Below, in pieces: positions 1 through 32,000 of a stretch of 32,000 nucleotides of DNA (position 1 is the first letter of the stretch; each line of letters begins with the position of its first letter). The position numbers and the translations under genes are program-made. The stretch is taken from NCBI RefSeq assembly GCF_021057185.1, contig NZ_CP054059.1:1020001-1052000 (forward strand), written 5' to 3'. A model generated the notes under the pieces. That model searched no databases. It saw only the letters and a list, made by a program, of their open reading frames with translations, and had not been told where the DNA came from. The DNA is from Candidatus Absconditicoccus praedator. GTDB taxonomy: Bacteria; Patescibacteriota; Gracilibacteria; Absconditabacterales; Absconditicoccaceae.

Positions 1-886
1 AAACTAAAGCAAAAAACAAAACATAAGACAACAGTTCAAAAAACATCAATCATGTATTATCATACATAACCATTGATGCTATTCCAACTGCAGCTATTGG
101 GAAAGTATATGCCCACCAAGAAAGATAAAAGTTTATTTTCATAAAAATTTTTGACTGAAAAATCAATAACATCAAAAAAAACAAAGAAATATAATAAAGA
201 ATTTTTCAAAACTGATCAATTTGTCACACCAGCTCATACCATGATACAAAACCAACTGCAGGTGGCGCTATTAGTATAAACAAAGTTGGAAGAAGTTTTT
301 CCGGGATTGGTGGATAAAATATAATACGATTAAAAAAGATTACCAACAAAACAAGCCAAAAAACAATTCAAATAGAAAAGAAAAACCAAGATATTTCCAA
401 TCAAAGATAGGAAACTCACACTATTGGAATCAATATATTACCTACTACAGGTATAAACCATGCTGGACTCATATGTGTAACTTCAAATTTGGTATCATGC
501 ATCCATAAAGATATAATAAAAAATGTGATAAAAAGATGCAACACACTTCAAACCCACAATAATATATGTGCTAAAAGATCATTAATACCATCAAATCCCA
601 CACTTAAAAGTATAAAACTTATAGAAACAGCCCCAAAAAAACTTATTTTTATTGGATGATTAATCTCAGACAACACCTGTTGTTTATAAAAAACAAACTT
701 TAACAAATAAACAACCAAAAACAAAACAAACAAGGCAACAACAATCATCAACAAATAAAAATCTATCATCTGAGGAAATCACAAAACTTCTTGACCTTTT
801 TGAATAGACATTATCAATCCTGAAAGTCACATAACCACCGCAAAAAATGGTACAGGAAAAAACTTCAATCTACTATCTTTTTCCAT
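1..886 (-). CDS. TehA/SLAC1-type (TDT family) anion/dicarboxylate transporter, 3' end beyond window
   Basis: ATG at 886..884. Table-25 translation is MEKDSRLKFFPVPFFAVVMGLSGLIMSIQ..., followed by polytopic hydrophobic segments and ...SWWAYTFPIAAVG... near the window edge, both typical of TDT-family channels. In-frame TGA (e.g. 550..548, 52..50) reads as Gly. No TAA/TAG in frame down to base 2. Confidence 0.7.
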
Positions 887-1101
887 AACAACAATTTAAT
901 ATCTAAATTAAAAAACTTATAAGTTCGTCTTAGTATAATCGCCTACAGATAGTTCTTTTAATAAAAACAAAACTATCAACTAATCTTTTTAGTGACAAAA
1001 AAATATTTTTTTATTTCTAATATAAAATAGATTTTATTAAAGAAGTTGAAAAAAACTAAGTTTTATTTATAAAAAAACATATTTAAAAAACTTATCAAAC
1101 C

Positions 1102-2061
1102 ATGAAAATAACCATAACAAGTGAAGAAGCTTGACAAAGATTTGATAGATTTCTTAGAAAATATCTTAAAAATTATGATATTACTCTTTCACAAATTTTT
1201 CAACTTATTAGAAAATGAAAAACAAAAGTAAACAACCAAAAAAAACCAAACAACTACAAAATAAATATTTGAGATCAAATATATATTCATCCAGAAATCA
1301 AAAAACTCAATCAAACAAAGCAAGAAAAAGTTAAAAACATAAATCAAACTTATATAAAACAATTAATCATATACGAGGATATTAATTGGATTTTTTTCAA
1401 CAAACCAGCCAAAACACCTACCCAATCTTGAACAAAACAAGAAAACAAAATCACCATGATAGACATTCTAAGAAGATACACAACATCAAAAAGCAAAACT
1501 TTTTCACCTATGTTTTGATTTAGATTGGATATAGACACCACAGGAATAATTGTAGCAGCCAAAAATTATAATGCACTCAAATACTTAAATCATATCATCA
1601 AACAAAGACAAACAGACAAAAAATATATTGCTATACTAAGTTGACATTTGGATGAAAAAATTACAGTCAAAAAAAACCTGTATAGAAAATACGACAAAAA
1701 AGTTTGAAAAGATCTAAGTTTTCCTGATGACAACTGAGATTATGCCAAAAGCATATTTGAACCAATCCAAAATCAACAAATTTACTGAGAAAACATCACA
1801 TTGGCTAAAGTAAAAATCATAACTTGAAGAATGCACCAAATAAGAGCTCATGCAAAATATATTTGAACACCTATAATTTGAGACTTATTATACTGAGAAC
1901 AAGCTACAAATAATCTGTTCCTAAAAAAACTTGGTATCAATAGACAACTTTTGCATTGTTATAAATATTCATTTTATGACAAATTCCAGGGCAAACAAAT
2001 ATCCATAAAATCCAACTATCCAAAAGACTTCGAAAAACTTTTTAAAACTTATGAAGAGTAA
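1102..2061 (+). CDS. RluA-family 23S rRNA/tRNA pseudouridine synthase (RluD/RluC-like)
   Basis: Continuous frame 1102..2061 ending in TAA once TGA=Gly. Catalytic motif GFRLDIDTTG. GRMHQIRAH motif with its Gly encoded by TGA at 1825..1827. GDLLYG motif with both Gly encoded by TGA. Confidence 0.88.
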
Positions 2062-2065
2062 TATT

Positions 2066-3031
2066 ATGCCAAACCCGATACTTCTTGAATCATACAACAA
2101 AATCAGTGAAGACAACAAACTTATTAGATTGGCAACTGTTACTACTATAATTTATTCTATAATTTTTGTTGTTTATGTGATTTACCAATTGTATTATATA
2201 GTTTCTGAATGAGCTGCTCAAGCAGAAACTATGGACATAGCTTTTGAATATATACAATTTTTTATGGACAACATCCAGTTTGCATGAGTTATAGTAACAT
2301 TAATAATCACTCTGGCTGTATGATACTTTCTATTGCCTCCCATAGCAGATTGAGCACTAATATCATATCTGAACAATCCTGAAAAATGATGAAAATCTTC
2401 TATATGAAAATGATTATTGAATTTTTTCCCTATGTTTGAATACAACAGTATGATGAGTGTGGTAAACTATTTGATTTTTTTCATCGCTGTTACTAGGTTG
2501 TGGGACATGGGCATATTAGAAAACACATTTGTACAAGTTGTAATTCTAATATGGGCTTTTATAATATTTTTTTCAACTATTTTTTTTCACTATTCAAAAT
2601 TTCTAATAATTATCGAATGATACTGACCGGTTGATGCTATCAAAAAAAGTATAGCATTAACACTTGAAAATTTTGGTATCACTCTAAAGTTTGTACTTAT
2701 GAACTATTTTTTATATATAAGATTCCTACTTAATATTGTAATAATAGTGATAATTCCATGGATTTTTATTTGGATATTTTATACATTATGAATTGATGAT
2801 ATCCAAATCATACAGTATTCTATGTATATTATCTTTTGAATTCTTATATTACTCACAGCATATATCAACTGAATCATAGAAGCTTTTTTTACTACTTATT
2901 GGTATAAAGTATACAAAACAATTACAAAGAATGAAGATAGCCAAGACAAAGACTCAAAGGAGACAAGCAAAGATGAAGATACCATTACACAACAAAACAC
3001 AAACACACAAGATAATGAAGAAAATATCTAG
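2066..3031 (+). CDS. hypothetical polytopic membrane protein with acidic/polar C-terminal tail
   Basis: ATG at 2066, 4 nt after the rluA-like stop. 321 codons ending in TAG at 3029. Several long hydrophobic stretches (IIYSIIFVVYVIY, VVILIWAFIIFFSTIFF, IVIIVIIPWIFIWIFY). Tail is KNEDSQDKDSKETSKDEDT... No family recognised. Confidence 0.6.
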
Positions 3032-3105
3032 TTTTGTATATTATTTTGAAAATTAGCAAAATCATTATAATAAACCTCCCCTTCAAACTTCCAATGAATA
3101 CTTTA

Positions 3106-3132
3106 GGGGGTGACCCTAGTCTTGTCCGAAAC
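3106..3132. repeat. IS left inverted repeat (GGGGGTGACCCTAGTCTTGTCCGAAAC)
   Basis: Matches the reverse complement of 4381..4407 at 23 of 27 positions by direct comparison. Confidence 0.75.
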
Positions 3133-3194
3133 ATTGATTTTATTATAAAAAAAGCTATAAGTATAGCATTTAAAATAATAAAATATATTTAAAT

Positions 3195-4376
3195 ATGGAA
3201 GGAATTAATGTAAAACAGATATTAGAAATAATACCTGATGAATTTATAGAAAAATTAGAAAAAAACTGTAATATAAATCATCAAGTTAAAAAAATGAGTT
3301 GAAAGGTAATGTTTAAACTGTTATTAATGTGAATATTAGATTGAGATAATTTAACACAAAGAACATTAGCATCAATATATAACAGTCCTGAATTTACTCA
3401 ATATGCAGATAAATGAGAACAACAAACAAGACATACAACTATAAGTGATAGACTTATAAACATGGATTATAAATTCTTTGAGAAATTGTTTGAAGAAATA
3501 AGTAAAAAGTTTGAAAAAGTATTAAAAATATGAGCAACAAAAATGAAGGTGGTGCTAAAGAGATTTGATTCTACATTAGTTTGAATATCAGAAAAACTAC
3601 TTAAGTTTTGAATAAAAGCATGAAGTCCAGATGAAAGACATATAAAATTTACAGTCTGATTAAAGTGATTGTTGCCAAATAAAGTTTCAGTTTATGAAGA
3701 GCAAAAAGCAAGTAGTGAAGATGTAGCATTATGAGAAACTATTTTACAAGAGACAACATCTAAAAATCAAATATTATTATTTGATAGATGAGTTCAAAAA
3801 AGAGAAACTTATTCAAAGCTAATAGATAAAAATACAAATTTTGTAAGTAGATTAAGACAAAATACTAAGTATCAAGTTATAAGACAAAATAAAGAAGTAG
3901 AATGAATAAAAGTATGAAATTTAGTGTTAGAATGTGATGAAATAGTAAAATTATATTGAAAATGATGAGATATATTAGAAAAAGAATTAAGATTAATAAA
4001 AGCAATAAATCAAAAAAATGAAGTATTTTTATTTATAACAAATATGTATAATTTCACAGCAGAAGAAATAACAGAATTTTATGCAAGGAGATGGGATATA
4101 GAAGTATTTTTTAGATTTATAAAACAAGAATTTTGATTTAGTCATTTTGTATCAAGATCAAAGAATTGAATAATGAATATGCTATATATGACACTAATAA
4201 CATCAATACTTGTAATAGTATATAAATCAAAAAACAGTATAAAATCCTACAAAGAAGCTAAAAGAAGATTTATTGCTGAATTAGATGAATTAATTTTAAT
4301 TGAGCTAGCAATAGCAATCTGAGGAGATGTTGATCTTCTTAAAAAGAAATATTTAAATTATTATAAATACTCTTAA
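3195..4376 (+). CDS. DDE transposase (DDE_Tnp_1, IS4/IS5 superfamily)
   Basis: 393 codons from ATG 3195 to TAA 4374. The C-terminal signature YARRWDIEVFFRFIKQEF is the Y-x2-R-x3-E-x6-K motif of IS4/IS5 DDE transposases. By my reading about 20 in-frame TGA codons are read as Gly. Confidence 0.85.
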
Positions 4377-4380
4377 TAAG

Positions 4381-4407
4381 GTTTCGGACAAGACTGGGGT
4401 AGCCCCT
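4381..4407. repeat. IS right inverted repeat (GTTTCGGACAAGACTGGGGTAGCCCCT)
   Basis: Reverse complement matches 3106..3132 at 23 of 27 positions. Begins 5 nt after the transposase stop codon. Confidence 0.75.
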
Positions 4408-4543
4408 CCAAAAGATTGTAACAAAAGGGATGGAGTACCCCCACTCCTAAAGATTGTAACAAAAGGGATGGAGTATTCTACTCTTACGGTTTGTTACCAA
4501 AAGGATGGAGTAAAGCACTATTTTTGTAACAATCTTTGAGAGG
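4405..4543. repeat. Three tandem 37-38-bp units closed by an inverted copy of the unit start (palindromic repeat module, MITE/REP-like or extended IS end)
   Basis: Units start at 4406, 4444 and 4481. A 27-nt core AAAGATTGTAACAAAAGGGATGGAGTA is identical at 4411..4437 and 4449..4475, and the third unit is degenerate. Unit junctions form short hairpins (GGAGTAcccccACTCC). The reverse complement of 4521..4543 matches 4405..4427 at 19/23. Confidence 0.7.
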
Positions 4544-6577: not shown

Positions 6578-7324
6578 ATGTGAAAAATAGTAGCTATCGG
6601 AGGATGAGAAATCAAAAACCACGAAACACTTACTTTTGACAAAAGAGTAGTAGAGCTAACCAATAAAACAAACCCCAAAGCACTGTTTATCCCAACTGCA
6701 AGCAAGGAAGCTACTTGATATATAGAAACCTTCAAGAATATTTACTGACACCATCTTGGCTGTAATCCAGATGTTTTGTATCTTTTGAGTAAAAAACCTG
6801 ATTTTGAAGAGATTAAAGAAAAAATTTTATGAAGTGATCTTATTTATGTTTGATGAGGAAACACCTTGAAAATGATGAAAAAGTGGCGCAAACTTTGAGT
6901 TGATAAGCTTTTAGAACAAGCTCATCAGAATTGAACAGTCCTTTCCGGCCTAAGTGCTGGTAGTATATGCTGGTTTGAAGCAGGACACAGTGATTCAATG
7001 TCTTTTAAATCAGAAGATAACCGAAAATATATCAAAGTAAGATGACTTGGTTTGCTTAAATGAATACATTGTCCTCATTTTTCCAACCAAGAAAGAATAA
7101 AAGATTTCGAAGAATTCATAAAAAAATACAAAGATATTTGAATAGCCATATCAGATAACTGTGCTATAGAATTTATAGACAACAAATTCAAAGTTTTATC
7201 AGATAGTGAAGAAAACAAAGCTTATAAAGTATTTTACAACAAAAAACAAAAACAAGTAATTAAAAAAGAAATACCTAAATTCAGGGAATTTATAGATATT
7301 TCTTTTTTGTATGATAATAATTAA
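6578..7324 (+). CDS. S51 family peptidase (dipeptidase E / cyanophycinase-like)
   Basis: The protein begins MGKIVAIGGGE. It contains LIYVGGGNTLKMMKKW and the nucleophile-elbow motif LSGLSAGSICW, followed by GHSDS. Several of these Gly are TGA. Ends in TAA at 7322. Confidence 0.82.
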
Positions 7325-9137: not shown

Positions 9138-10433
9138 ATGGAAAAAACTAAAAAAATTATACTATTTTTTATGTGAATAATATTTTGATGAGGTATAACA
9201 TTTTTATGATATTCTTATTATCTTGATAATCATTTGTCTTCGTATACAGATACAACAGTAAGAGTTGATAGTACTAGTTTGGTACAAGATATAAAAGATA
9301 AATTCTCATCTATAGGTTGAACTTCTCAAGAAACTCTAGAAAATGAAAATGATAGATTTGATAAAATATATCAAGTATGGTCTATATTGGAGTCAGAGTA
9401 TTATCGTAGTGATGAATTAGATTTTGAAGATATGTTTGATTCTGCATTGAGAAGTTTTGTAGAAGAAACTTGAGATCCTTATAATAACTATTTATCTTCT
9501 GAAGAAAATCAGTCTTTCCAAGAATGACTAGAATGAAATCAAGATTTTGAATGAATATGAGCAGTAGTTACAAAAAGAGATAATTGAGTTATGATAGAAG
9601 AGTTGATGCCTGAGTCGCCTGCTTCAAGTGCATGATTACTGCCAATGGATATTATATTGGAGGTGGATTGAGAATCTACTTCAGACTTGTCTTTATCAGA
9701 AGCAGTAGAAAAAATTCGTTGAGAAGAATGAACAAAAGTAGAATTAAAAATATCTAGAGAAGAAGATTGAGAAAGAGAGACTTTTACAGTTGAGGTTGAA
9801 AGAGCCGAAGTGAATGTTCCATCAGTAAGGTGAGAAAAAAAAGATCTGAACTGAAACACAGCTTGATATATTCAAATATCTATCTTTTGAGAAGATACTC
9901 AGGAGGCTTTGAGTAATGTTATACAGGATTTACAAGAAGAAACTCTTGATTGAATAATACTTGATTTGAGGTGAAATTGATGAGGATTTTTGCCTATGGC
10001 AGTAGAAATAGCATCATATTTCTTGCCGGAGTGAGATACTATAGTAACTACAGATTATACTATTCAGCCTTGAGATGAGTACAACTCTAGTTGATATCAT
10101 CAGTTGCAAGACAAACCTGTAGTTATACTGGTAGATCAAATTTCGGCTTCAGCTTCAGAAATTATAGCAGCTGCCCTAAGAGAAAATTTGGATTCACAAA
10201 TAGTTTGAGAAAAAACTTTTTGAAAATGATCAATACAAACTCTTCATGATTTCCAAGATTGATCATCACTTAAATATACTATGTGAAAGCGATTTACACC
10301 TTCTTGAGAAACAGTAGAATGAGAATGATTAGAGCCAGATCATAAAGTAGAATTTGATACCGATAAATATGAAACTGAAAATGTTGATAATCAACTTGAA
10401 AAAGCAAAAGAAGTGCTTAAAGAATTATTTTAA
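9138..10433 (+). CDS. S41 carboxy-terminal processing protease (Ctp/Prc family) with PDZ domain
   Basis: 431 codons from ATG 9138 to TAA 10431. Motifs are FEGIGAVV, PASSAGLLPMDIILEVDG (PDZ), ILDLRGNGGG (9972..9986 with three TGA Gly), SASASEIIAAAL (Ser nucleophile) and GEKTFGKGSIQ (Lys). Confidence 0.92.
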
Positions 10434-11472: not shown

Positions 11473-12552
11473 TTATTTAGAAACTTTGTCCCATCAAAGT
11501 TGTCCACATGCTCATTTTTCTTTTCTTCAAAGACTATTTCTTAATGTACTGGTAATTCAATTTCTTTCCAAGACTTTTTTGAAATTTTCTATTTTTTCTG
11601 GATTTGGTTCTTGATAATTTGGTGTAAGAGGATTTTCATTAAATGGTATAAGGTTTACATGACAGTTTTTTGATTTTAGAAGTTTTGAAAGTTGGATAGC
11701 ATGGTTTTCCGAATCATTTAAATTTTTAATAAGAATATACTCGTGAAATATTCTGGTTTTTGTTTTGTTTTCATACCAATCCAAAGTTTTCATAAGGTCT
11801 TGTAGGGGATACTTCTGGCTAACAGGCATCATTTTTTTCCTTAATTCTTGATTTGGTGCATGCAAACTAATTGCTAGCATAACTTCTAAATTGTCCTCAA
11901 CTAGCTTTTCTATTTGTGGAATAAGTCAAGAAGTAGAAATTGTTATATGTCTTTTGCTAAGTGATAAGTAATTTTGTTCAAGCATAAAAAAGAGGGAGTT
12001 TTTCAGATTTTCATAGTTTAATAAAGGTTCTCACATACCCATAAAAACAATGTTTCTTACTTTATGTAATGTTCAGTCTTCTTTTTTTCAAAGTTTATTT
12101 TTGATTATATTGTTGGCAACCAGTACTTGACTTAAGATCTCTTCTGTAGTAAGATTACCTGCAAATCCAAGTTTTCAAGTAATACAAAAATCACATCATA
12201 TAGGGCATCATTTTTGTGTAGAAACACATAGTGTTATTCTATTTAGTTTTTTTTGGTCTCAATTATAATGATAGTGATATAAAATCACAGTTTCGATTAT
12301 ATTGTTGTCTTTTGTGGTAAATGAAATTTTTGTGCTTTCTTCTCAATCAATTTGTTCTTTTAGAGTTAGTGAACTAATATAAAAACTGTTATTTAATTGT
12401 TCTCTTAACTCCTTGGATAGGGTCGTCATATCCTCAAAATTTATATTGCTGTTTTTGAATATTTCTTGCTTGATTTGTTTTATTCTAAAAGGTTGTAGCT
12501 TTTTTGTTTTTCTAAAATTTTCCAACTGTTCCAAATTGAGTATCCACTCCAT
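11473..12552 (-). CDS. rlmN: 23S rRNA/tRNA (adenine-C2) methyltransferase RlmN, radical SAM
   Basis: Track ORFs 12343..12552 and 11557..11880 share a frame and are joined through TGA codons. Radical-SAM cluster CPIGCDFC lies at 12207..12184. C-terminal ...GACGQL has the conserved second Cys. TAA at 11475..11473. Confidence 0.9.
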
Positions 12553-12601: not shown

Positions 12602-14089
12602 CTACTTGAAATCTTGTATTATATTTTGATAATCATTGTATGCTTGTTTATTGTTTTTTAGTAATTTTTTAAAATTGTTTATAGCATAAATTACTGTTGC
12701 ATGATTTTTTCAACCAAAATAATCTCATATTTTTTCAAGTGTCCATCAAAAATGTTCTTTTGCAATATACATAAGCATTTGTCTTGCCATACTAACTTCT
12801 TTTTTTCTACTTTCTCATTTTATATCAAATATTCATATATCATAATAATTTGATACATATTCTACTATTTTTCAAAAGCTTTTGGTGTTTTTGGTATTTT
12901 TGTTTTCTGCATTTATTATGTTTACTTGTTGTTGCTCTGATTTGTCTATATTGTATCACAATGTTTGTAATGCTTCAAATATATCTTTTTCTCATATCTC
13001 TTGTTCTAACAAATTTTTTCTTGTCATTATTAAGTTTATTGCTCATTCAATTTCTCTAATATTGTCTTGTATGTTTTTTGCAAGAGTTTCACAAAGGCTT
13101 TGATCAAGTTGTTCTCATTTTTCCCTAAGCTTAGAATGTATTATAGCCAGTCTAGTTTCAAAGTCAGGTTTTTTAACATCTGTCACAAGTCAAAGTGCAA
13201 ATCTGCTTTTCAATCTTGCTTCCAGCAGATCAAGTTCTTTTGGTGGACGGTCAGAAGATATTATGATCTGTTTTTGATTTATATGAAAATCATTAAATAT
13301 ATTATGGAAAATTTCTTGAGTTTTTTCTTTGTTTGCTAAGAACTGAATATCATCAATGATAAGAACATCCACTTGTTCAAGTTTTTTCATCAAGTTGGAG
13401 AGAGTATTTTTTCTTATTGCCTCTACTATCTCATCAATAAGCTTTGTGCTTGGTAAATATACAATTGTTTTTTCGTTTTGAGTTTTCATTATATAGTTTC
13501 AGATAGCCTGCAGTAAGTGAGTTTTACCAAGTCATACATCTCAATATATAAAGAAAGGATTGTAAACTTTTCAGGGTGATTCTGATATTTTTTTGCTTGC
13601 AGAATATGCCAACTGATTGCTTCATCAAACTACAAAATTTTCAAATTTGTATCTTTGATCAAAAAGTATTCCAAAGAAATTTTTTAATTTTTCTTTTGTT
13701 TTTTTATCAATATTTTCTGGTGGAGTGTTTTTTTTGTTGTTGGTTCCCAAAATTTTTTGTATATTGATTTGTAGCTTATGTTTTCAGCTTTGAAATTTAC
13801 TATAAACTGCAATTTTTATTTTGAATCAGTCACTATAAACTTCTTGTATACTTGCTTCAAGCTCTTTTTTAAAAAATTTTTTTACTTGTGATTGAATAAA
13901 TTCATTTGGCACTCATATATATATTTCTTTTGTTTTTTCTTCAATACTCAAAATTCAGCATTTTCAAAGAAAAGAATATATTTTTTTGGGATCTTCTCTT
14001 GTTGATATATTTTTAATAGTTTTTTCCCGTAGGTTTTTAAGAAATTCTACTTTTTGAGTATCATAGTTTTCTACTGTATCAACAAGCAT
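12602..14089 (-). CDS. dnaA: chromosomal replication initiator protein DnaA
   Basis: ATG 14089..14087, TAG 12604..12602, 495 aa. Walker A GDVGLGKTHLLQAI lies at 13543..13520. It contains DVLIIDDIQFL, SSDRPPKEL and RLKSRFAL. The domain IV motif is ARQMLMYIAKEHFGWTLEKIGDYFGGKNHATVIYA. Confidence 0.95.
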
Positions 14090-14118: not shown

Positions 14119-15192
14119 TTATTCTTCTTTCACAAAAGCAAGTTGTTTTGCTTGATTTTCCATCATCACATCATTTATAATTTTATCTATTTCTCAGTTC
14201 ATTATTTGAGGTATATTAGACCAAGATTTTTTAATACGATGGTCTGTTATTCTATCTTGCGGGAAGTTGTAGGTCCTAATTTTTTCAGATCTGTCTCAGC
14301 TTCAAATTTGATTTGCTTTTTCTTCCTGAATTTTTTCGTGATGTTGTTTTTGTTCTATTTCATAAAGTCTTGATTTTAGAACCTGAAATGCCTTTTCTTT
14401 GTTTTGTAGCTGTGATTTTCATTCTCAAATAGTTACTATAATTCCAGTTGGTTTGTGAATTAGTCTAACTCAGGTTGCATTTTTATTTGCATTTTGTCAT
14501 CAAGCACTACTTGCTGCAAAAGTATGTAATTCTACATCATTTTTATTTAAATTGACTTGTACATCTTCAACTTCTGGCATTATACTTACTGTAACAGTTG
14601 ATGTATGAACTCTTCATCAGCTTTCTGTCTCTGGTATCCTTTGGACTCTATGAACTCAACTTTCAAATTTTAGCTTTGAGTATACATTTTCTCAGCTTAT
14701 TTTGATTATACATGATTTTAATCATCATATATCACTAATTTCTTCTTCAATTATTTCAGTTTTCCATCAAGCATATTCGGTATATCTTAGGTACATTCTC
14801 ATAAGTTCTAGAGCAAACAATCCAGCTTCATCTCATCATGCTGCTGGTCTTATTTCCATAAAAATATTTTTTTCATCATTTGGATCTTTTGGAAGCATAG
14901 CTATTTTAAATTTTTCATATATATCTTCTAGCATTTCTTCAGATTCTTGTTTTTGTGCTTTTGCCATTTCAATTAAATCTTCATCTTTTTCAGTATTTAT
15001 CATCTCTTTTGCCTCTTCTAGGCTATTGTGATATTTTTTGTAGTCTTGATATAGATTGTATGTTGGTTCAAGATTTGTAAGTTCTTTATTTAATTTTATC
15101 ATTTTTTCATTATCAGAAAAAACCTCTGGGTTACATAGTTCTTCTTTGATTTGATTATATCTTTTTTCTACTTCTTCAAGTTTTTGCCACAT
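14119..15192 (-). CDS. prfA: peptide chain release factor 1 (UAA/UAG-specific)
   Basis: 357 aa. RF1-type tripeptide region RIPETESGGRVHTS (PxT class, not the SPF of RF2). GGQ is encoded TGA-TGA-CAA at 14502..14494. It contains EIRPAAGGDEAGLFA. TAA at 14121..14119. Confidence 0.95.
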
Positions 15193-18140: not shown

Positions 18141-18482
18141 GGTAACCTCAAGTTAGGCAATACACCTAAAGATAAATTAGGTGAGGAAAGTCCCAACACC
18201 AATAAATAGCTAATAGATAACATCTATTGGATCTTGGAAAAGCAAAGGAAAGTGCCACAGAGACGAAAACTAATCTTTAAAAATTAAAGATAAAAGGTGC
18301 AACGTGAGGGTGTTCCATTAATATGGGCTACCTCTGCTGAACCTATAAGATTTATAGGTCAGTGGTAAACCCTAGCTGGTGCAAGCTGACTCATTCTTGT
18401 GAGGTAGTGCTTGATGTCTGTAATAAACAGATCTAGAGAAATTTTGCCAATACAGAATTGGGCTTATTGACTTGAGGTTATT
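18141..18482 (+). ncRNA. rnpB: RNase P RNA, bacterial type A
   Basis: Universal P4 strands GAGGAAAGTCC (5') and ACAGAATTGGGCTTAT (3') are present. So are AGTGCCACAGAGACG (J11/12-like) and GGTAAACCC. P1 pairs TAACCTCAAGT (18143..18153) with ACTTGAGGTTA (18470..18480). This is the most GC-rich non-coding island in the window. Confidence 0.9.
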
Positions 18483-18505: not shown

Positions 18506-19720
18506 ATGAAAAATGTTAAAAAAGATTTTCCAATATTTAAAAACAATCCATGATTAGTTTATTTAGATAGTTGTGCAACTACTCAAAAGCCTTCTAATGT
18601 TATTAATTCTATAAAAGATCATCTAGAATCTTATTATTCTAATATACATAGATGACTATATCACTTGTCAGAAAAATCAGAAGATGCATATATTAGATCA
18701 AAAAAACTAATAGCTGATTTTTTGTGAGTTAAAAAGTCAGAAATTATTTATACATATAATTCTACTTATGCCTTTAATATTTTGGCTGAAAGTTTATATT
18801 ATTCATGATATCTTCAAAAATGAGATAAAATTTTATTGTGAATAGCAGAACATCATTCAAATATAGTTCCTTGGTTGATGTTGAAGGAAAGATTTTGAAT
18901 TGAGGTAGAGTTTATTTGAACAAATGATGATTATGATTTGGATATTGATGAATTTGATAAAAAATATGATGAAAAAACAAAACTTGTAGCATTAAACTAT
19001 GTTTCAAATGTTACTTGAACTATTTTTGATATAAAAAAAATATCAAAAAGGCTGAATGAAGAAACATTATTTGTTGTAGATGGTAGTCAAGCTGTGCCAA
19101 ATTTTTCAATAAATCTACATGATATTTGATGCGACTTTTTTGTTTTCACATGACATAAAGTTATGGCAAATACTTGAATTTGAGTTTTATGGTGAAAAAA
19201 ACAACTTCTAAAAAAGCTAAATCCTAGTATATGATGATGATGAAGTATAAAACATGTTTGAAAAGAAGATTATGAGTCTTTGGATACTGTTGAATGATTT
19301 GAAGCTTGAACCCCTAATTTGTCGTGAGCGGTTAGTTTGCTTGCTGCTTTTGAATATATAAGAGATATTTGATGATTTGATTATATTTGGGATAAAGAAC
19401 AGTCTTTAGTAAAATATGCCATAGAATGATTTGAAAAAAGAAAAGATAAGGTTCAATTGATATGAAAACAAACTCAAGAAAATAGAGTAGGTGTCTTTTC
19501 GTTTATAATAAAAAACTCTAATTTTTCTCCTATAAAATTTTGAGAATTTATGGCAATGAATAATATATGTCTAAGATGTGGATGACACTGTGCTCATCCT
19601 TATCTTGATGAAATGTGAGCTTGATGAACTTGTAGAATAAGTGTATACTTATATAATGATTTTGAGGACTTGGATAAGTTTTTTGATGTTTTAGACCAAT
19701 TTCTTGATAAGTTTTTCTAA
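18506..19720 (+). CDS. sufS: class V aminotransferase, group II cysteine desulfurase (SufS/CsdA-like)
   Basis: 404 aa. It contains YLDSCATTQKP and HRG. The PLP lysine lies in FVFTGHK (Gly TGA at 19151..19153, Lys at 19157..19159). It also has GTPN and the active-site motif RCGGHCAHP. Confidence 0.88.
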
Positions 19721-21125: not shown

Positions 21126-22415
21126 ATGAAAGTATGATTGGTATGAAGAACAAATGTAGGAAAATCTACACTTTTTAATAAACTTATATGAACACATAGA
21201 TCTATAGTTACAGATATATCTTGAACTACTAGAGAAAGTTTTTCGGAGTTAGCAAATATTTGAGATGTTAGCTTTCTGTTATTCGATTCTCCTTGATTGG
21301 ATACAGAAAATGAAAAACCTATAATCAAAGAAATCCTACAAAACTGTGATGTGGTAATTTTTATGGTAGATGCAAAAGATTGAATTACCCACAAAGATCA
21401 GGAAATACAAGAAATGATTTTTAAGTCTTGAAAACAAAAACAAACACTTTTACTTATTAATAAAGTAGAATGAGATTCTACCAGTATTCAGGCGGATGAG
21501 TTTTATCAGTTTGGTTTTCAAAATATACATAAAGTTAGTGTTTTACAACAAATATGAACAGATTTTATTAAAGATTTTATAGTTGATCAATTTAAAACAA
21601 ACAAATTAAAATCATATGACAGTCAAGTTCAGTCTATACCATTGGCTATAGTGGGTAGACCAAACACTTGAAAATCTACTTTGTTAAATAAGTTTGCTCA
21701 AAAAGAAGTAGCGAAAGTTGAAGATAAACTTTGAACTACATTGGATTACTTGAAAACTTATATAAACTATAAATGAGAAGATTTTGTTTTGTATGATACT
21801 GCTTGAATAAGAAAAAAATGAAGAACTGTATGATTAGAGAAGATAGCTTTTAGTAAAACTTATAAGCTTTTGGAACTAGCTCAACCTACTACAGTTATAC
21901 TATTGGACATGCAGGAATGATTAACACATACTGATAAAACTATACTTGGTAAGATTTCTAAATTGAAGGTTCCAGCAATAATAGCTGTAAACAAAACTGA
22001 CCTTTTTTCAAAAAAAAGTATAGATAATTTTATAAAATTTTGTACAAGAAATATAGAATTTGCAAAACATATTCCTATAATTCCAATATCATCAAAAACT
22101 TGATATTATATAGATAAGATACTAGATTTTGCTCAATCTATTTATCAGGAAAACAATAAAAAAATACAAACATCTCAGCTAAATAATATTCTCAACAAAG
22201 CTTGGATACACAATCCTCCAAGGTTTCCAAAAAATAAGATTTGTAAATTTTATTATGCAACACAAACCGATATTGCTCCACCAAGATTTGTAGTTTTTGT
22301 AAATGATGAAGAAAAAGCTAATTTTTCATTTAAAAAATGGATAGAAAATAATATTAGAAAAAATTTTGGATTTATATGATGTTTTATTGATATCAAGTTT
22401 AAAGGCAGATCTTAA
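21126..22415 (+). CDS. der: ribosome-associated GTPase Der (EngA), tandem GTPase domains plus KH-like C-terminus
   Basis: 429 aa. First P-loop GRTNVGKST (21144..) and second P-loop GRPNTGKST. Also DSPG / DTAG, NKVE / NKTD, and the C-terminal PPRFVVFVN. Many P-loop Gly are TGA. TAA at 22413. Confidence 0.93.
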
Positions 22416-23440
22416 TAAAGATCTTTTATTACAACTTTGATGGGTCAAGAATTTTTTGCTTTTTCTTTTGTTATTTCAAAAAGATTTTTTGCATATATTC
22501 AAGGTAGTCTAATGCATCAGTTTGATCTTTTCTCTCAGTCAGTTGTTCAAGCATGCAAAAAGTATGGTGAACGATAACTTCATATTTGTATTGAATAAGC
22601 CATGGGAGCATCCTCATAAGAAAATGAAGTTTTATCTGCTATAAAATTTCAGCTAGTGGTATACACTCATTCTGGTGTTTTAGAGTCTTTTGTTCATACT
22701 GATGTTATTGAAGCAAATTTTAGATTTCATTCTTCAAAATACAAAACAGCATTTTCTCAATTTTTAATTGTAGTGACAACAATTACTGTGTCATTTTCAT
22801 CTATATGTGATTGAAACTTTGTGTATAAACCTAGAAATTCTGAAAGGTTTTTTCATGTATGTTTTAATATTTCTGGATTAATCAAAGGTATATTTAATTT
22901 TTCATAATTAAATATCGATGAATTTTTATCTAAAGGATTAACATCTTTATTTAATTGTTGTAATCAATTATTTTTTCAGTATCAAATATGTTCTCATAAT
23001 CTTCTTCAATGAAGTTCTAAAAGGGGGTCTTGTCGGAGAGAAGTAGTTTCAAATTCAATTACATTTAATATATCTTTTTTTTGTTCTTTATCCAAATTAT
23101 TATATTTTTCATAAATATCTTTAAGTACTATTTCTGACCTTTCATCTGTTTCTTCAGATACTTCAATTTCTTCGTAATCGTCATATTGTTCAGGAGTTTC
23201 AATGTCGTGTTCTCAAGGTATTTGTTTTGTACCTTCTTTATTGTCTTTTGGTTGTTCTTGAGTAGGTGAAACTCCTAGTTCTGAAAATCCAATAACATCT
23301 ATATTATTATCATTTTGAGTTTCTTTTGATGTAGTTCAACATCACGAAGATAAAACTGCAAGTAAAATTGCAGAGTTTAATAATATATTTTTTTTATGTA
23401 TTTTTTTTCATCCAGTATCTTGGTCTAATTTCTTTCTCAT
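22412..23440 (-). CDS. lipoprotein with C-terminal L,D-transpeptidase (YkuD) catalytic domain
   Basis: 342 aa from ATG 23440 to TAA 22414..22412. Signal peptide with lipobox-like AVLSSGC. An acidic linker follows. YkuD signature YFLHAGTTDGEKRSNGCIRLP, with the catalytic Cys codon at 22516..22514 and the preceding Gly as TGA. It overlaps the der stop by 4 nt (convergent). Confidence 0.82.
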
Positions 23441-23627: not shown

Positions 23628-23978
23628 TTATTTTAATCAAGGCATATTTGGCATTCATCCTCATCATCCTCATCACATCATAGATGCTATATCATTTGGA
23701 TCAAATCATAGTGTGTCTTTAGTTTTTTGCATAGCAACCTCTTGAGCTTTATTTTGTCACTTTTCTATAGATGCCTTGATTGCTTCTTCTAAAGATTCTT
23801 TCATATTTGGATCCAAAAGGCTTTCATCTTCTATTTTTACATTCTTAATTTTCATTTCTGCAGTGATATCTATAAGAACTCATCATTCTCTAGCTCTAAT
23901 TACAGTATTTTTAAGTGTTTCTTGTAATTTTTTGTATTTGTCATACATTTGTTTCATATCTCAAAGATTTCCAAACAT
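23628..23978 (-). CDS. ybaB: YbaB/EbfC family nucleoid-associated DNA-binding protein
   Basis: 116 aa: MFGNLGDMKQMYDKYKKLQETLKNTVIRAREGGVLIDITAEMKIKNVKIEDESLLDP...LEEAIKASIEKGQNKAQE... with a terminal GGGGGGGMPNMPGLK tail. This matches the YbaB pattern throughout. Confidence 0.88.
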
Positions 23979-24007
23979 TTTGTTGTTTTATATAATAAAA
24001 ATAAGTA

Positions 24008-25285
24008 TTATTTATCTTTTCAAGAATCTGATTTATTTGATTCTGATTTCTTTTTTGTTGAATTGGCATTTTTTCATTTTTTGTCGGAGTTATTATTTGA
24101 TTCAACTAGTTTTTCATAAACTTTCTTTTCTGCATCAAGTGGAGTTTTCCAGTCTATTTGATCTGATATTCCAAGCTGATTTGAAATTTCCTTTAATATA
24201 AAGAATTTTCATAAACTTTCTTTTGAAGATTTTCTTACATCATTATGTATATTATTTCTTTCTTCTTCTGATATAGAATCCATATATTTTTTAAGTCATT
24301 CTTCTCATCCAAATCTTTTCTCAAGCGATTTCATTCTTGTTTTTACTTCTTCATCTATTATAGTCTTTGGAATCACAACTTCCATACTTTCTTCTGCAGA
24401 TTTTATAAAGTTTTCTATTTGATTTACTAATCAGTTTTCAAATTTTTGTTTTTGAACAATTTCAGTGATTCTTTCTCTTAGTTCATCAAGGTTTTTTACC
24501 TCATTATTGAAAAGTTCTTGTATTTTTTCATCTGTCATTTCAGGAAGTTGAACTTTTTTAATTTCTATCATTTCAAATTTTATATTAGTTGGATTTCATT
24601 CCTTGTGGTAATGAAGTATGTGAGGTAGTTTATCATGCTGATACTCTGAGTTGAAAACTTCTCATTTTTTCTTTCCTACAAATAATTCTTGAAGTATATG
24701 ATGTTCATCCATATCTTCTTTTCATATAAATGCTGTACCATTATCAAGTTTTTGTTCGTTTTCATCTAAAAAGTCAAATTTTACTTTAGCTACTGTATCC
24801 TGTGTCATTTCTTCTACATCATCATATTGCGCATATTGTTTTTGTAGGTTTCATAGAGTTTGTTGTATTTCTTCTTCTGTTACAGAATCATCTACTTTTT
24901 CTATTTTTGCTGCTTTCCAATTATCATTTTTTACTTCTACTTGTGGATATTCATCAAGATTGAATGTGATAGTAGTATTTTTATCATCTGATTTGTCGTT
25001 CACATTGTATATTTGTCAAATAAATTTTATATTTGGATTTTCTTCAATTATTTTTTTAAGTCACTCATTTACAATTTCTTCATATATTCCCATTTTAATG
25101 TATTCTGGATTTGCTTTTTCTTCAACCATTTCCAAAGGTGCATGACCTTTTCTAAATCCTGGTACTTCCATATCTTGTTGAATTTTTTTAAGTATTTTCT
25201 CTTTGTATTTTGAACTATCTTCATTTGGTATAGTTATACTTATCTCATAGTTTGAATTATTTCATTTTGTTAGCTCGTATTTCAT
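24008..25285 (-). CDS. tig: trigger factor
   Basis: 425 aa. N-terminal ribosome-binding signature VPGFRKGHAP. Overall TF architecture with a Lys/Ser-rich tail. ATG 25285..25283, TAA 24010..24008. The track ORFs on + in this span are antisense shadows. Confidence 0.88.
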
Positions 25286-25448: not shown

Positions 25449-27515
25449 ATGAAAAAATGAATAATCTTATTTATTTGATTTATTCTAGTATCTTCTATAT
25501 TGTTATATAATACACAACAGCAAGAATATACGAATCTAGAAGATTGAACTAAAGCAATAGAAAAAATATCAGAAAAAAATGAAATAGACCTTAATAATTT
25601 TTTAAAGTTATATGAAGATAATGAATTTGATAAAGTAAGAGTTATTGACTGAAAAAAACTACACTGACTTATTGAAATAGAAATTATAGAAACTACTCAT
25701 ATAATTGGTTATAAAATTCCTCAAGTAAATTATAAAAAATTCACAACAAAAAAACCTGAAGAAACTACAATTTCGGAATTATGAATTGATCCAAGAAAAG
25801 AAACAAGTATTACGGTAAAATATGATGAAAGATGAGTCTTAGCAAGTGTGTTTTTGGAAACTTTATTGCCATTACTGCTTTTGGTGTTGTTGCTGATTTT
25901 CCTTTTTAGGCTTTTTGCTCCAAAATGAGGTGGTTGATTTCCATTCTCTTCTACACAAGCTTGAAAACTACAACAAAAAGACGATATAAAAGCAAAATTC
26001 AAAGATGTTGCATGAATGGATGAGTCTAAGAATGAATTGGAAGAAATAGTTGACTATTTAAAAAACCCTACTAAATACAAAAAAGTATGAGCAAAAATAC
26101 CAAGATGAGTTCTATTGTATTGACCTCCTGGAAGTGGTAAAACATTGGTAGCAAGGGCTGTTGCCTGAGAAGCAGATGTTCCTTTCTTCTCTTCTTCTTG
26201 AAGTGAGTTTATGGAAATGTTGGTAGGTATGTGAGCAGCCAAAGTTAGAGAGCTTTTCAATAAAGCCAAAAATGCAGCACCTGCTATAATATTTATAGAT
26301 GAAATAGATACTATTGGAAAAAGAAGGTGATCGGGACAAACCTGATGACATCAAGAACAGGAGCAAACACTGAACCAAATACTTACAGAAATGGACTGAT
26401 TCAACAAAGATACAAATGTAATTGTGTTGGCTGCCACTAATAGGCCTGATATGTTAGATAAAGCATTGTTAAGACCTTGAAGGTTTGATAGAAAAGTTTA
26501 TGTATGAACACCTACATTAGAAGAAAGAATTGATATACTGAAAGTTCATACTTGAGACAAAAAATTAAGTAAATCAGTTGATTTAGAAACAATAGCTAGA
26601 AGAACAAGTTGATTTGTATGAGCTGATCTAGAAAATCTTGCCAATGAGGCAGCCATAAAAGTAGCAAGAGAAAGAAGAAAAATCCTTACAAACGAAGATT
26701 TTGAATATGCATTGGAAAAGGTTATTATGTGACCTGAGAAAAAAATTAAAACTATGAAAGAAAAAGAAAAGCAAATTATTACATACCATGAGTTATGACA
26801 TGCAGTTACAGCATATATGCTACCAAATGCAGATCCAGTAGAAAAAATAAGTATAGTTAGTAGATGAATGGCATTGTGAGTGACTTGGATGATGCCACAA
26901 GAAGACACATACTTGAACAGTAAAGCAAAGTTTCTTGATCAACTTGTGACATTACTTTGAGGAAGAGTTGCTGAAGAATTAATCTTTGGTAAAGAAGAAA
27001 TAACTACAGGAGCATCAAATGATTTTGAGAAAGTTACTCAAATTGCTTCTGATATGATTATGAAATACTGAATGGACGATGAACTTTGAACAATTAACTA
27101 CAAACAAAGAGAACAACAAGATATGCAAGTATACAGACCTTATAGTGAAGAAACAACTAAAAAAATTGATGAAAAAATATTTAATATCGTGAATGAGGCT
27201 TACGAAAAAGCCAAGAAAATACTTCAAGACAACATGGATACAATCGAAAGATTGGCAAAACTTCTATATGAAAAAGAATACATATCCAAAGAAGAGTTTG
27301 AGGAAATTATGCAGAAGCCTGAAAAAGCTGATGAAATGTATGAAGATTTTATAGAAAAGCAAAAAGAAAAATCAAAACAAGATAAACAAGTACAAGAAGA
27401 GGAGGAAGAAGACGACGAAGATACAGAAGAAGATAACAAAGAGAAGGAAAAAAACAGGCTGGAAGATATGCTTGATAGGTTCTTGAAAAAATGAAAAGAT
27501 TCAGATAACAAATAA
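25449..27515 (+). CDS. ftsH: ATP-dependent zinc metalloprotease FtsH with long acidic C-terminal extension
   Basis: 688 aa. Two N-terminal TM segments. Walker A GPPGSGKT at 26121..26144 (first Gly TGA). Walker [32 protein letters not shown]. Zinc site HELGHA at 26787..26804 (Gly TGA). Track ORF 27123..27494 is its C-terminal fragment. TAA at 27513. Confidence 0.96.
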
Positions 27516-27519
27516 AAAA

Positions 27520-29016
27520 ATGTCATACAAACTGGTAGTAAAAGATGCTTTTTGGCAGATTCTTTGAAGAGTGCTAAGTGCTGTAGCCTGACTTTTAGTG
27601 ATAAAAATGATAACTCCTTATCTTTGACCTCTTAGATTTGGAGATTATTCTACAATATTGAAATATTTTGCTGTATGGGCAGCATTAGCAGATTTTGGAT
27701 TGTATGTTATTGCATTAAGAAAACTTGGACAAATCAAAGAAGAGTCATTTGAAAAACTTAAAACAGTCTATTGAAAGATAGTAGCTACCAGATTTTTTAT
27801 GATATTTGTTGTTTATACTCTTGCTATATTTGTAGCATATCTTATACCCGCATATACAGAAAATCCATATTTAATATGGTGACTACCTCTTGGTATGATG
27901 TTTAGTGCAAGTTTCATGGTTGCAGGGATGCTTCAGGCGCCTCTTCAGCTCTATTGGAAAATGAAGCATCTTTGTATATGACTTGTGCTATCAAGATCTG
28001 CACAGCTTATCATGTTGGTGACTGTGTTATATATATTGTTTCCATGACAAGAGTTTGATTGAAGTACATTATCAATATTTGTATTTTGTTTGATAATGGC
28101 ATCTGTGGTATTGTCTTGAATTGTTCAGATAGCATATGTACATCGAGTATGAAGAAAAATAATACCATTAAACCTAAAATTTGATAAAGAATTTTCCAAA
28201 GATATAATATTTTCAAATCGACAGTACTGAGTTGCATACTTTTTGAGTAGTTTTCATACTTTGGTAGTGTTAATAATTCTTTCTATCTTTTTTCCAACAG
28301 AACAAAATTTTGCTTATGTATGAGTATGGGCATTAGCTCTTGCTTTGATGGAAATATTGTTGGTAGTGCCTCAAAGTCTTGGGAATGCATTGATTCACAA
28401 AATATCTTCTAAATCAAAAAAGCATATATTAAAAAGCTTTGGATATATGATTATTTTTACTATATGGATAGGTATAGTTTTTCTTATTAATTTTGCTGTT
28501 TTTTGAACACAAATCATATATTTTGTTGGATGAGAAGACTACCTTTGAAATTGATATATATGAGGCGATGTTGTTCTTGCTTTTTTATGAGTAGTCTTAG
28601 TGCTTAGTTTTGTGAAGCAAATTTTTAACTACGTTTTTGTAATAAACAATCTTCAAAATAAGCTTTTAATAATAAATTTTTTATGAGTATCTATCTGACT
28701 GATTGTATGATTACCATTGATACTTCAGTATAATTTAATATGAGGAATAATTACTCAAATATTATTAGAGGTTTTATTTGTATTATGAGCTATATTTATT
28801 GCTTGGAAAAATAAGATTTTGCCAACAATTAATCGAAATTATTATCGAACAGTTATTTTTATATGATTTGTAATATTAATTTTATGATTTTATCTTGAAT
28901 CAATGATTGGTTATGCACATTTTCTAAGTTTTATTATGATGGTTGTTATTCTTAACTCAGTCTTACTAGTTTTATCTTATTTTCCAATAAAAAATATTAT
29001 GAAACAAATTTATTAA
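27520..29016 (+). CDS. MOP-superfamily polysaccharide/lipid-linked oligosaccharide flippase (Wzx/MurJ-like)
   Basis: 498 aa from ATG 27520 (4 nt after the ftsH stop) to TAA 29014. About 12-14 hydrophobic segments. N-terminus KDAFWQILGRVLSAVAGLLVIKMITPYLGPLRFGDYS is typical of Wzx/MurJ-like flippases. The subfamily cannot be assigned by eye. Confidence 0.65.
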
Positions 29017-29548: not shown

Positions 29549-29715
29549 TTTTTATTTTTTATTTTTTAAATTATATATTAAAATGATAAATAAAATTTTA
29601 AAAAATTCAAATTTTAAGGCCAAAAAATATAAAAAACAAGCAATTAATCTTAATTTTTATTTAGTTTTTAAAATATGGCTAACTCAAAGTATAAACTCAT
29701 ATTTTAATTAAATAA

Positions 29716-29744
29716 TTGACAATTTAAGCCTTTTTGATTAATAT
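29716..29744 (+). promoter_or_regulatory. sigma70-like promoter (TTGACA-17 nt-TAATAT) for the giant ORF
   Basis: TTGACA at 29716..29721, a 17-nt spacer, and TAATAT at 29739..29744, 58 nt upstream of ATG 29802. It sits in the longest (about 250 bp) and most AT-rich intergenic region of the window. Confidence 0.5.
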
Positions 29745-29801
29745 ATTGAATACTAAATTAACCATATTTTTTTTATTAGCTATTTACTTTAAATAATATA
29801 G

Positions 29802-32000
29802 ATGTGATTAGGAGTTTTTGAAAATAGACAAACAAACAGTGAAGCTCAAAATATTCTATGAATTGGAGAAGATGAAACTTGAGTTTTGTTAGAAGTTAGA
29901 CAAGAACTAACATCAACCTTACTGGAAGAGAGGTTTATGGGAAGTGAGAAAGAAAAAGTAAAGCATATACTTGAAAAATTAAAAAATATTATAGGTGTTA
30001 AAAAGATGAAACATTCTATTACTCTTAATAGATTTTTGTTTCATATTTCTATGTTTATAAATCCAAAGATACTAAATGACTACAAAAGAAATCTTAATGA
30101 ATTATTTTATATAATATCAAACGATGAAACTGTGTATAACCTTTTTATGAAGCAGTCAAAAATATTACTTAATATATTAAATGAAGAAGTTGGTGATAAT
30201 GAAACTCTTTTTAATAGATCTCAATTTCCAGATAGAAAAAATATGATTTTTTTAGAATGATTATATTATTGAATCCTAAACATTAAAGAAGCTTTAGAAT
30301 ATGTTTTTTATATCAAAAGCACAGATAAGGCTTATTGTGAATACTATGAGCAACACAAAGATAATAAGCTAATTACAAATATAATAAATGAAATAGATTC
30401 TTTTTTAGAAGAAAATGAAGTTAGCTTGGATAAAGATAGTAATGAATATTATGAGCTTATTTTGCATTTTTATATGCTTAGAATACCAAATAAAAGCACA
30501 TCATCTAAATATAAACATATAATACTTAAAAATCTTCAAAAAAAAATTGGTATAAGTTGAATTAATCAAAATTTTTCAGGGCAAAATGTAGGCAGTAAAT
30601 TTCAGAAAAACTTGTACAAAACTTGAAGCAAGATATGAAATAAACAAAGAAGAGATACAAATATTACTAACTTTTTAAATGATTTGAAAATTTTAGGAAG
30701 AAAACAACAATATTATAAAAAACTATCTCAAAATCTAAAACAAAATGATTGTGATGGTCTTTTGATTGAGGAGTTTTTGGATATATTTTTTGATTCATTA
30801 TTTGAAAGCAATGTTGATCTGGATTTTGTGGGTGTTCTTTATATGGCTTTTAAAGAGAAAAAAATATCCAATGATGATAATATCAGGATAAGCTCTATAT
30901 ATAAAAAATATAAACAGTGAAAAATAGAAAACACTTATGATCTTCAAAACTTTTTAGGTTTTCTTTTGTTAGCAAGTAAAAATCCTGAACTTCAGTCTTT
31001 TTCAGAAGAAAACAGGGACTACTTGTTTTCTGAGTACAGTGCTGAATTTATTGAGGAAAATGTTAACTTTTTCTTGAAGTTCAAAGACAATGTATGTTTA
31101 ATAACTCAAATATTATGAGCTGATTTTGTACAAAAAAATATTGAAAATATTCAGTGATTTAAAAATATTTCTTCTTTGTTAAAAAAAGTAGATATAGATT
31201 TAATTGGAAATAAAAATTTGTATTATTTATTGTATGTAATTTTTTGGGAAGAACAAAACCAAGTTAGCAAATATGTTGAAGAATTTAGAGAATACAAACA
31301 AAATTTAATAAGACTTAAATCACAGGAAGATTTATTTTTACAGGAGACACAAAATCCTATAGATATTGGTTTTTGGGAGTTTTTGCAAACTGATCTTGAT
31401 TATGAAAACTTACTTAATCTTGAATTTGCTATACAAGAACTAGTAGAACTAAACAATAAAATTAAAAATTTTTTATCAGATAAGCAATTTTCTAATGAAA
31501 TAACTCATAGAAGAAAAATATATGATATATCAGTAGAAAGGCTTATTTATTATGTATATTTTTGTGAAAATTTTGACTGCAGTGAAATAAGTGAAAGAAC
31601 TCTTCAAAATATATTTTTATTGCAGGAAGATAAATATCATACAGTTGTAAATAATATATTAAGTTTGGCAAACAATACAGCATTAAAAAAGCTAAATCAT
31701 CTAAGTAAAAATGAAATTTTATATATTTTTTATCATAATTTTGCAGATATATATCATTTATTAGATAATGACTTTGAAAATATACAAGATATCCTAAGTT
31801 GATTAAATAAAACTAGCTTTGTGGAAAAATATCAAAAAGAAATAGAAGAAATATTAGATTCTACAAATATAGATGTTACATTAATTTTTGAATATTTTGA
31901 AAATCTAGAAGAGGAAATAGATTGGTTAGAGAGGCTATTAAAATTGTTTAAGTTCTTAAAGAAAAATAATTTATTGCCAATAATAGAAAGTAGTTTTCCA
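29802..32000 (+). CDS. large hypothetical protein, N-terminal 733 codons or more, continues beyond window
   Basis: ATG 29802 is preceded by an in-frame TAG at 29799. Track ORFs 29886..30260, 30684..30920 and 31176..31802 are all in this frame. The gaps between them contain TGA but no TAA/TAG (checked codon by codon), and the frame is still open at 32000. The protein is rich in N/K/E/L/F/Y and looks helical. No motif recognised. Confidence 0.7.

Follow-up and report, generated by a model that had tools for sequence, protein, structure and literature searches.

Glycine at UGA and a probable tryptophan at CGA in a chromosome segment of Candidatus Absconditicoccus praedator

In which genetic code is the chromosome of the cultured bacterium Candidatus Absconditicoccus praedator written, and is the code under which it is publicly annotated the whole of it? 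We address this question in one stretch of 32,000 nucleotides (nt) of that chromosome (contig NZ_CP054059.1, positions 1,020,001 to 1,052,000), referred to here, at its full length, as the window. The window has a G+C content of 26.5%, and read with the standard code (NCBI translation table 11) it contains few substantial open reading frames (ORFs). The longest start-to-stop ORF has 208 amino acids (aa; 31176 to 31802), exactly the value given by an initial annotation made from the sequence; between stops, the longest frame has 214 codons, and only 20 frames reach at least 100 codons. When TGA was dropped from the set of stops, the number of ORFs with at least 100 codons rose to 62 and that of ORFs with at least 200 codons to 28, the three longest having 733, 696, and 644 codons. 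The longest frame thus grows from 208 aa to 733 codons once TGA is sense. Dropping TAG or TAA instead gave no comparable long ORFs, and the rescue is therefore specific to TGA.

Counting TAA and TAG alone as stops, we defined a set of 28 genes, and 91% of the window is coding when TGA is read as sense. These genes contain 442 in-frame TGA codons and no in-frame TAA or TAG. A stop is visible in 26 of them, TAA in 23 and TAG in 3; the initial annotation was right that every visible stop is TAA or TAG, although it had counted 27 such genes. It had also described the standard code as leaving the genes as fragments and antisense artifacts and had held that annotation with table 11 would ruin the locus, and this is what is seen: only fragments of the genes result, and of the six ORFs that reach 110 aa with table 11, two lie antisense to real genes.

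The residue inserted at TGA was read from alignments in which that codon had been masked. In five proteins (FtsH, release factor RF1, SufS, Der, and DnaA), each TGA was translated as X before alignment with PDB homologues from standard-code organisms, so that the alignment could not be biased by the residue chosen for TGA. Opposite the 152 TGA cells, glycine (Gly) was found 97 times and tryptophan (Trp) never, while the background frequency of Gly in the PDB references is 6.7%. In the best reference for each protein, Gly faced 21 of 26 TGA sites in FtsH (reference 7tdo), 13 of 17 in RF1, 12 of 19 in Der, 11 of 31 in SufS, and 9 of 17 in DnaA; with one reference per protein, this amounts to 66 of 110 nonredundant TGA sites (p = 2e-48 against the 6.7% background). 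The M50 protease, aligned with 119 homologues from the database, gave the same picture, six TGA columns being Gly in 110 to 119 sequences, or at least 92%. The conserved motifs that the initial annotation had singled out, with their coordinates, were all checked, and TGA lies exactly at the glycines it had named (Table 1).

The return of long ORFs does not distinguish Gly from Trp, because the same frames are restored whatever amino acid TGA inserts, and a code in which UGA encodes Trp, as in Mycoplasma (table 4), has to be weighed here. Some database relatives have evidently been translated with table 4, which leaves a few Trp residues in columns that are otherwise all Gly. We compared Pfam scores of ten proteins translated with TGA as Gly or as Trp. 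Full-length domain coverage was regained with TGA as sense, and the Gly version scored higher in all 15 domains compared; with Trp, the scores fell from 355.7 to 263.9 bits for Aminotran_5 (PF00266, SufS), from 160.8 to 102.9 bits for Peptidase_S41 (PF03572), from 238.2 to 195.6 bits for the PCRF domain, from 83.0 to 65.9 bits for PF00849 of the RluA-family protein, and from 175.4 to 147.7 bits for PF03575 of the S51 peptidase. Composition agrees: with TGA as Gly, the proteins contain 5.8% Gly and 0.64% Trp, which are ordinary values, and with TGA as Trp they contain 1.3% Gly and 5.2% Trp, which are abnormal.

A further comparison came from aligning window genes, codon by codon, with their orthologues in nine related TGA-recoded loci (designated below by L numbers). 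In these alignments, the partner of a window TGA codon was TGA 238 times and GGN 139 times, and in no case TGG. Conversely, window TGG codons paired with TGG in 48 of 67 orthologue cells and with TGA or GGN in none, and the window has TGG at 3 of the 12 reference Trp positions in the masked PDB alignments. The PDB alignments, Pfam scores, composition, and codon pairs refute table 4, which we consider highly improbable; its use would place Trp at ~4.5% of residues, catalytic glycines included. Four independent lines of evidence (masked PDB residues, Pfam scores, codon pairs, and composition) bear out the proposal of the initial annotation that UGA encodes Gly, not Trp, selenocysteine, or stop.

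The ends of the genes are also well placed. Alignments of RF1, Der, SufS, and DnaA reach to within 1 to 6 residues of the C terminus, and the called lengths of the M50 protease and of an oligosaccharide flippase equal those of the corresponding NCBI proteins, so that UAA and UAG are the true stops and UGA has no part in termination. Fragmentation of the genes by table 11 would also be expected if the code were standard and the locus consisted of decaying pseudogenes or poorly assembled sequence, or if its genes depended on selenocysteine or programmed read-through. This explanation, whose probability we put close to nil, does not account for 442 in-frame TGA codons inside genes that lack any in-frame TAA or TAG, for TGA on invariant active-site glycines, for TGA positions kept in relatives (the TGA-TGA pairs counted above), or for the recovery of full-length Pfam coverage. 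Selenocysteine is excluded because TGA makes up 4.5% of codons, a density incompatible with its use, and pseudogenes, a low-quality assembly, selenocysteine, and read-through are all refuted by interruption at TGA only and by the conserved TGA positions. On the evidence of the sequence, the window reads UGA as Gly and uses UAA and UAG as its only stops.

The initial annotation had further held that Trp is still encoded by TGG. That part stands, two TGG codons occurring in the WWAYTFP segment of the SLAC1/TehA-type gene, but the statement is incomplete, since CGA is Trp-like too. Among the 9,720 codons of the gene set, CGA occurs 9 times and CGG twice (9.3 and 2.1 per 10,000 codons), and the other standard codons for arginine (Arg) are AGA (203), AGG (32), CGT (6), and CGC (2). 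In the M50 protease, the CGA at aa 68 (15671..15669, minus strand) falls in a column, within the motif FGWxKP, where 110 of 119 homologues have Trp. In the S41 protease, the CGA at aa 385 (10290..10292, plus strand) aligns with the Trp of Bacillus subtilis CtpB in KWLTPNG. The SBP-like gene has CGA at aa 138 (17404..17402, minus strand), where L012 has TGG and L013 has CGA, and opposite the CGA codons at aa 209, 234, and 439 of the flippase (28144, 28219, and 28834), relatives mostly have TGG, CGA, or a phenylalanine (Phe) codon, with isoleucine codons in L037 at aa 209 and 439 and in L041 at aa 439.

Pooled over the nine related loci, the 22 cells opposite window CGA contain TGG 8 times, CGA 5 times, Phe or tyrosine codons 4 times, and AGR or CGY once. 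The 264 cells opposite window AGR and CGY contain neither TGG nor CGA or CGG, and the difference in pairing with TGG (8/22 versus 0/264) is highly significant (Fisher p = 3e-10). The exchange is also seen in the other direction, the TGG at aa 379 of trigger factor lying opposite CGA in L038. Among 119 flippase homologues, columns in which the window has TGG are 55% Trp and 29% nominal Arg, as would be expected if CGA-written Trp of relatives had been translated as standard Arg; columns in which the window has AGA are 73% Arg, and Trp is not among their six commonest residues.

Evidence on CGG is sparser. The CGG at aa 21 of DnaA (14029..14027, minus strand) is CGG in L001 and CGA in L012, and no standard-code reference aligned with it, the N-terminal domain of DnaA having matched no DnaA structure in a search of the PDB. 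The second CGG, at aa 625 of the SBP-like protein (15943..15941, minus strand), faces serine. One window TGG is paired with CGG in L012.

Several observations weigh on the other side. The one AGR/CGY cell opposite window CGA is an AGG in L038, at aa 209 of the flippase, and the fourth flippase CGA, at aa 443 (28846), is Phe in three relatives and lies in a variable hydrophobic column. The CGA case comprises 9 codons and the CGG case 2, and the inferences on the code, including that for UGA, are all drawn from sequence. Two CGA codons gave no usable comparison, one in the S51 peptidase (7022..7024), which the PDB search placed in a poorly aligned loop, and one in the YkuD gene (23035..23033, minus strand); the flanking genes of 32 standard-code loci yielded usable data for RF1 only and nothing reliable for CGA. 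No tRNA gene was found in a scan of the window, and neither a tRNA-Gly(UCA) nor a tRNA with anticodon UCG or CCG in the nine recoded related loci. Over 13 loci (the nine TGA-recoded relatives and four non-recoded ones) and the window, the scan recovered only tRNAs for Ile, Pro, Phe, Trp(CCA), Lys, and Ser(UGA).

The AGG cell lends some support to plain table 25, in which UGA encodes Gly and CGA and CGG remain Arg, the Trp-like pattern being either coincidence or the product of real Trp-to-Arg substitutions. NCBI annotates the organism in this way, and its M50 protein (P0001) has R68 at the CGA codon; only 11 window codons are at stake, and in L038, a relative of higher G+C content, CGG lies opposite lysine and alanine codons of the window, as a true Arg codon might. 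However, Arg would then replace a Trp conserved in nearly all M50 homologues and, likewise, the Trp of CtpB; CGA would pair with TGG at a frequency never approached by AGR and CGY; and the AGR and CGY codons of the window are never opposite CGA or CGG in relatives. We regard plain table 25 as unlikely. CGA in the window very probably encodes Trp rather than Arg, and CGG, represented by two codons, perhaps does so as well; that CGA, perhaps with CGG, serves as a Trp codon in cultured A. praedator appears likely to us. With CGA read as Trp, table 25 by itself introduces slight errors into the translation of the locus, placing Arg at ~0.1% of codons, several of them at conserved sites, where Trp is very likely meant. 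The public table-25 proteins of A. praedator are probably mistranslated at the M50, S41, and three flippase codons located above (residues 68; 385; and 209, 234, and 439), with Arg written for Trp.

In L038 (GCA_030429145.1, contig JAUIDC010000001.1, 936 kb, 41% G+C), several CGA codons lie opposite window TGG. CGG may still be Arg in this genome and CGA already Trp-like, a possible intermediate state.

The prfA gene for RF1 in the window is intact; its product matches RF1 entries in the PDB at 6e-90, versus 7.5e-51 for the best RF2, and its stop-recognition tripeptide, P-E-T, is of the PxT type of RF1. Both glycines of its GGQ motif (14502..14494, minus strand) are themselves written TGA TGA (14502..14497). 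The translation system reads UGA as Gly, and termination, at UAA and UAG only, would proceed through RF1. By analogy with published work on the clade, UGA would be decoded by a tRNA-Gly(UCA), RF2 would have been lost, and tRNAs whose anticodon is UCG or CCG would be charged with Trp. Under code 25, such a tRNA-Gly with anticodon UCA would carry G1:C72, C2:G71, G3:C70, and U73. The rare CGA, and perhaps CGG, would specify Trp, Arg being written AGA, AGG, CGU, and CGC, and the full decoding would be table 25 with CGA and CGG as Trp.

The initial annotation had described TGA as one of the commonest Gly codons. It is indeed very common, but this understates its use, since TGA is the dominant Gly codon of the 28 genes (442 versus 122 GGN, or 78%). 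In a comparison across loci, the UGA share of Gly codons was 79% for the window (78% over all 28 genes), 78% in L037 (Vampirococcus, 22% G+C), 75% in L001 (27% G+C), 57 to 69% in L012 to L014 (30% G+C), and 14% in L038 (41% G+C). The share tracks A+T richness, and its high value in the window can be attributed to UGA being the most A+T-rich spelling of Gly in a genome of 26.5% G+C; the relation fits mutational pressure toward the most A+T-rich synonym after capture of the codon. Runs of TGA occur in two genes. The C-terminal poly-Gly tract of YbaB is written TGA TGA GGN TGA TGA GGN TGA (23675..23655, minus strand), a 9-nt repeat according to Tandem Repeats Finder, and SufS has four TGA in succession (19232..19243, plus strand). 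The large ORF at the right edge of the window departs from the 78% use of TGA, with more GGN than TGA codons (binomial p = 3e-4) and a low Gly content of 3.5%; recent acquisition of the gene, or atypical evolution, could be the reason.

The window is an ordinary segment of the cellular chromosome of A. praedator, a cultured predator belonging to the candidate phyla radiation (CPR). Its M50 protease is 100% identical to the site-2 protease family protein of that organism, and its flippase differs from the NCBI protein of A. praedator at four masked residues only (99% identity); the closest other flippase is that of Vampirococcus lugosii (68%). NCBI taxonomy places A. praedator in Candidatus Absconditabacterales (formerly SR1), and of the two groups offered by the initial annotation, Gracilibacteria and Absconditabacteria, the second is thus correct. 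Gene order is shared with related loci, prfA-dnaA-rlmN in L001 and ftsH-flippase in L038 to L041, and the loci that share it are also TGA-recoded; among relatives, the best RF1 match in the contig scan has 69% identity.

Phages are known from CPR bacteria, as are other phages with recoded genomes (PMC10746230), and one transposase lies in the window, so that a recoded phage or other mobile element might be proposed as the source. The housekeeping content (dnaA, prfA, ftsH, der, tig, rlmN, and sufS) and the presence of RNase P RNA identify a cellular chromosome rather than a phage, and two proteins match a 1.13-Mb A. praedator contig (1,129,696 bp). Together with the conserved gene order, these features refute an origin from a phage or mobile element, which we judge vanishingly improbable. 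Considered as a whole, the best explanation, which we hold with high confidence, is that the window belongs to the A. praedator chromosome and is translated with UGA as Gly and CGA, perhaps also CGG, as Trp.

One of the related genomes appears to carry a misleading name. The metagenome-assembled genome GCA_964394325.1, to which L001 (CAYMVT010000025.1) and L040 (CAYMVT010000017.1) belong, bears the title "uncultured Candidatus Peribacteria bacterium." It is TGA-recoded, has 27 to 28% G+C and the gene order of the window, and shares 54 to 74% identity with it in RlmN, FtsH, flippase, DnaA, and RF1. The Peribacteria label looks wrong, the genome behaving as one of the Absconditabacterales.

The features of the window are collected in Table 1. 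The RNase P RNA lies between the SBP-like gene and sufS, in a gap of 670 nt.

Table 1. Genes, RNA, motifs, and standard-code artifacts located in the window (TGA, in-frame TGA codons; motif TGA positions are window coordinates)
Feature	Position	Strand	Details
SLAC1/TehA-type anion channel, 3' end cut by window edge	2..886	-	PF03595 1.6e-50; 9 TGA
WWAYTFP, two TGG codons, in SLAC1/TehA-type gene	118..113	-	
RluA-family pseudouridine synthase	1102..2061	+	PF00849; 13 TGA; GRMHQIR Gly = TGA 1825
DDE transposase (insertion sequence type)	3195..4376	+	PF01609 1.6e-20; 20 TGA
Peptidase S51	6578..7324	+	PF03575; 12 TGA; CGA 7022..7024
S41 C-terminal processing protease with PDZ domain	9138..10433	+	PF03572; 35 TGA
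S41 motif LDLRGNGGG	9972..9983	+	TGA at 9972, 9978, 9981
RlmN radical-SAM rRNA/tRNA methyltransferase	11473..12552	-	PF21016 and PF04055; 13 TGA; orthologue in L001
DnaA	12602..14089	-	22 TGA
DnaA Walker A GDVGLGKT	13543..13520	-	TGA at 13543, 13534
Release factor RF1 (prfA)	14119..15192	-	17 TGA
M50 site-2 protease	15207..15872	-	11 TGA; PPLDG TGA at 15401..15399
SBP_bac_5-like solute-binding protein	15884..17815	-	35 TGA
RNase P RNA, bacterial class A	18145..18482	+	Rfam RF00010, 120.6 bits vs gathering score 100
SufS-type cysteine desulfurase	18506..19720	+	PF00266; 31 TGA; TGHK Gly = TGA 19151
GTPase Der/EngA	21126..22415	+	19 TGA; first P-loop TGA 21144, second 21669
YkuD L,D-transpeptidase	22412..23440	-	21 TGA; SNGCIRL Gly = TGA 22519..22517
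YbaB/EbfC	23628..23978	-	11 TGA
Antisense table-11 ORF	23776..24201		Opposite YbaB and trigger factor genes
Trigger factor (tig)	24008..25285	-	13 TGA
FtsH	25449..27515	+	34 TGA; GPPGSGKT first Gly TGA 26121; HELGH Gly TGA 26796
Antisense table-11 ORF	26546..26908		Opposite FtsH
Oligosaccharide flippase	27520..29016	+	25 TGA; four CGA (aa 209, 234, 439, 443)
Large ORF of at least 733 aa, cut by window end	29802..32000	+	No Pfam match; 12 TGA, 14 GGN

The number of in-frame TGA codons in the transposase gene indicates that the element either originated in a host with UGA as Gly or has resided in one for a long time. Directly downstream of this gene, the segment 4395..4545 is locally richer in G+C and in repeats. 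The repeat AAAGATTGTAACAAAA(GGGATGGAGTA) occurs there in two direct copies, at 4411 and 4449, and in an inverted copy at 4522..4537; 3 matches were found where 0.33 would be expected by chance, and the predicted fold has a z score of -2.8. A search of the segment against Rfam found no family, the best hit, sroC, scoring 19.5 bits (gathering score, 45), which is at chance level. The segment may be an end of the insertion sequence or a small structured RNA. Elsewhere, neighboring genes overlap slightly: by 11 nt (2051..2061) between the RluA-family gene and the membrane-protein gene next to it, by 4 nt (22412..22415) where der and ykuD converge, and by 20 nt (28997..29016) where the flippase gene converges with the one that follows. 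Such short overlaps are typical of a compact genome.

The reading of UGA as Gly governs any further reading of the window, but it is already known, as the initial annotation acknowledged; its publication dates from 2013, and the public source genome already has a table-25 annotation. What the analysis adds is modest: independent, codon-level support for the proposed change of CGA to Trp, in a cultivable member of the clade. If CGA is indeed Trp, A. praedator, which can be co-cultured with its prey, Halorhodospira, would be a practical organism in which to obtain the first proof by proteomics of an Arg-to-Trp sense-codon reassignment in bacteria.

Among known codes, code 4 of Mycoplasmatales, Entomoplasmatales, and several insect endosymbionts resembles that of the window in that a stop codon has been captured in an A+T-rich, reduced genome and loss of RF2 is expected; it differs in the residue, UGA inserting Trp there and Gly here. 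Code 25 is the closer match. The UGA = Gly code of SR1/Gracilibacteria was described by Campbell et al. and by Rinke et al., both in 2013 (cited in PMC8629427), and was validated by proteomics in BD1-5 by Hanke et al. (2014; PMC4032931); Absconditabacterales and BD1-5 are the two orders of GTDB class JAEDAM01 with UGA as Gly. The window shares with this code UGA at conserved glycines, UGG as Trp, UAA and UAG as the only stops, low G+C content, and the presence of RF1. We see no essential difference; UGA is the majority Gly codon of the window. The assignment of CGA and CGG to Trp was predicted for Absconditabacteria in the Codetta screen of Shulgina and Eddy (2021; PMC8629427), whose text and tables, as consulted here, do not name A. 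praedator, and is stated for Absconditabacterales in a 2026 paper (PMC13092985); it lies outside NCBI table 25 and the public A. praedator annotation. The window is like the genomes of that screen in the rarity of CGA and CGG, which is in the reported range, in the writing of Arg mainly as AGA, and in the presence of CGA on Trp columns, where it swaps with TGG among relatives.

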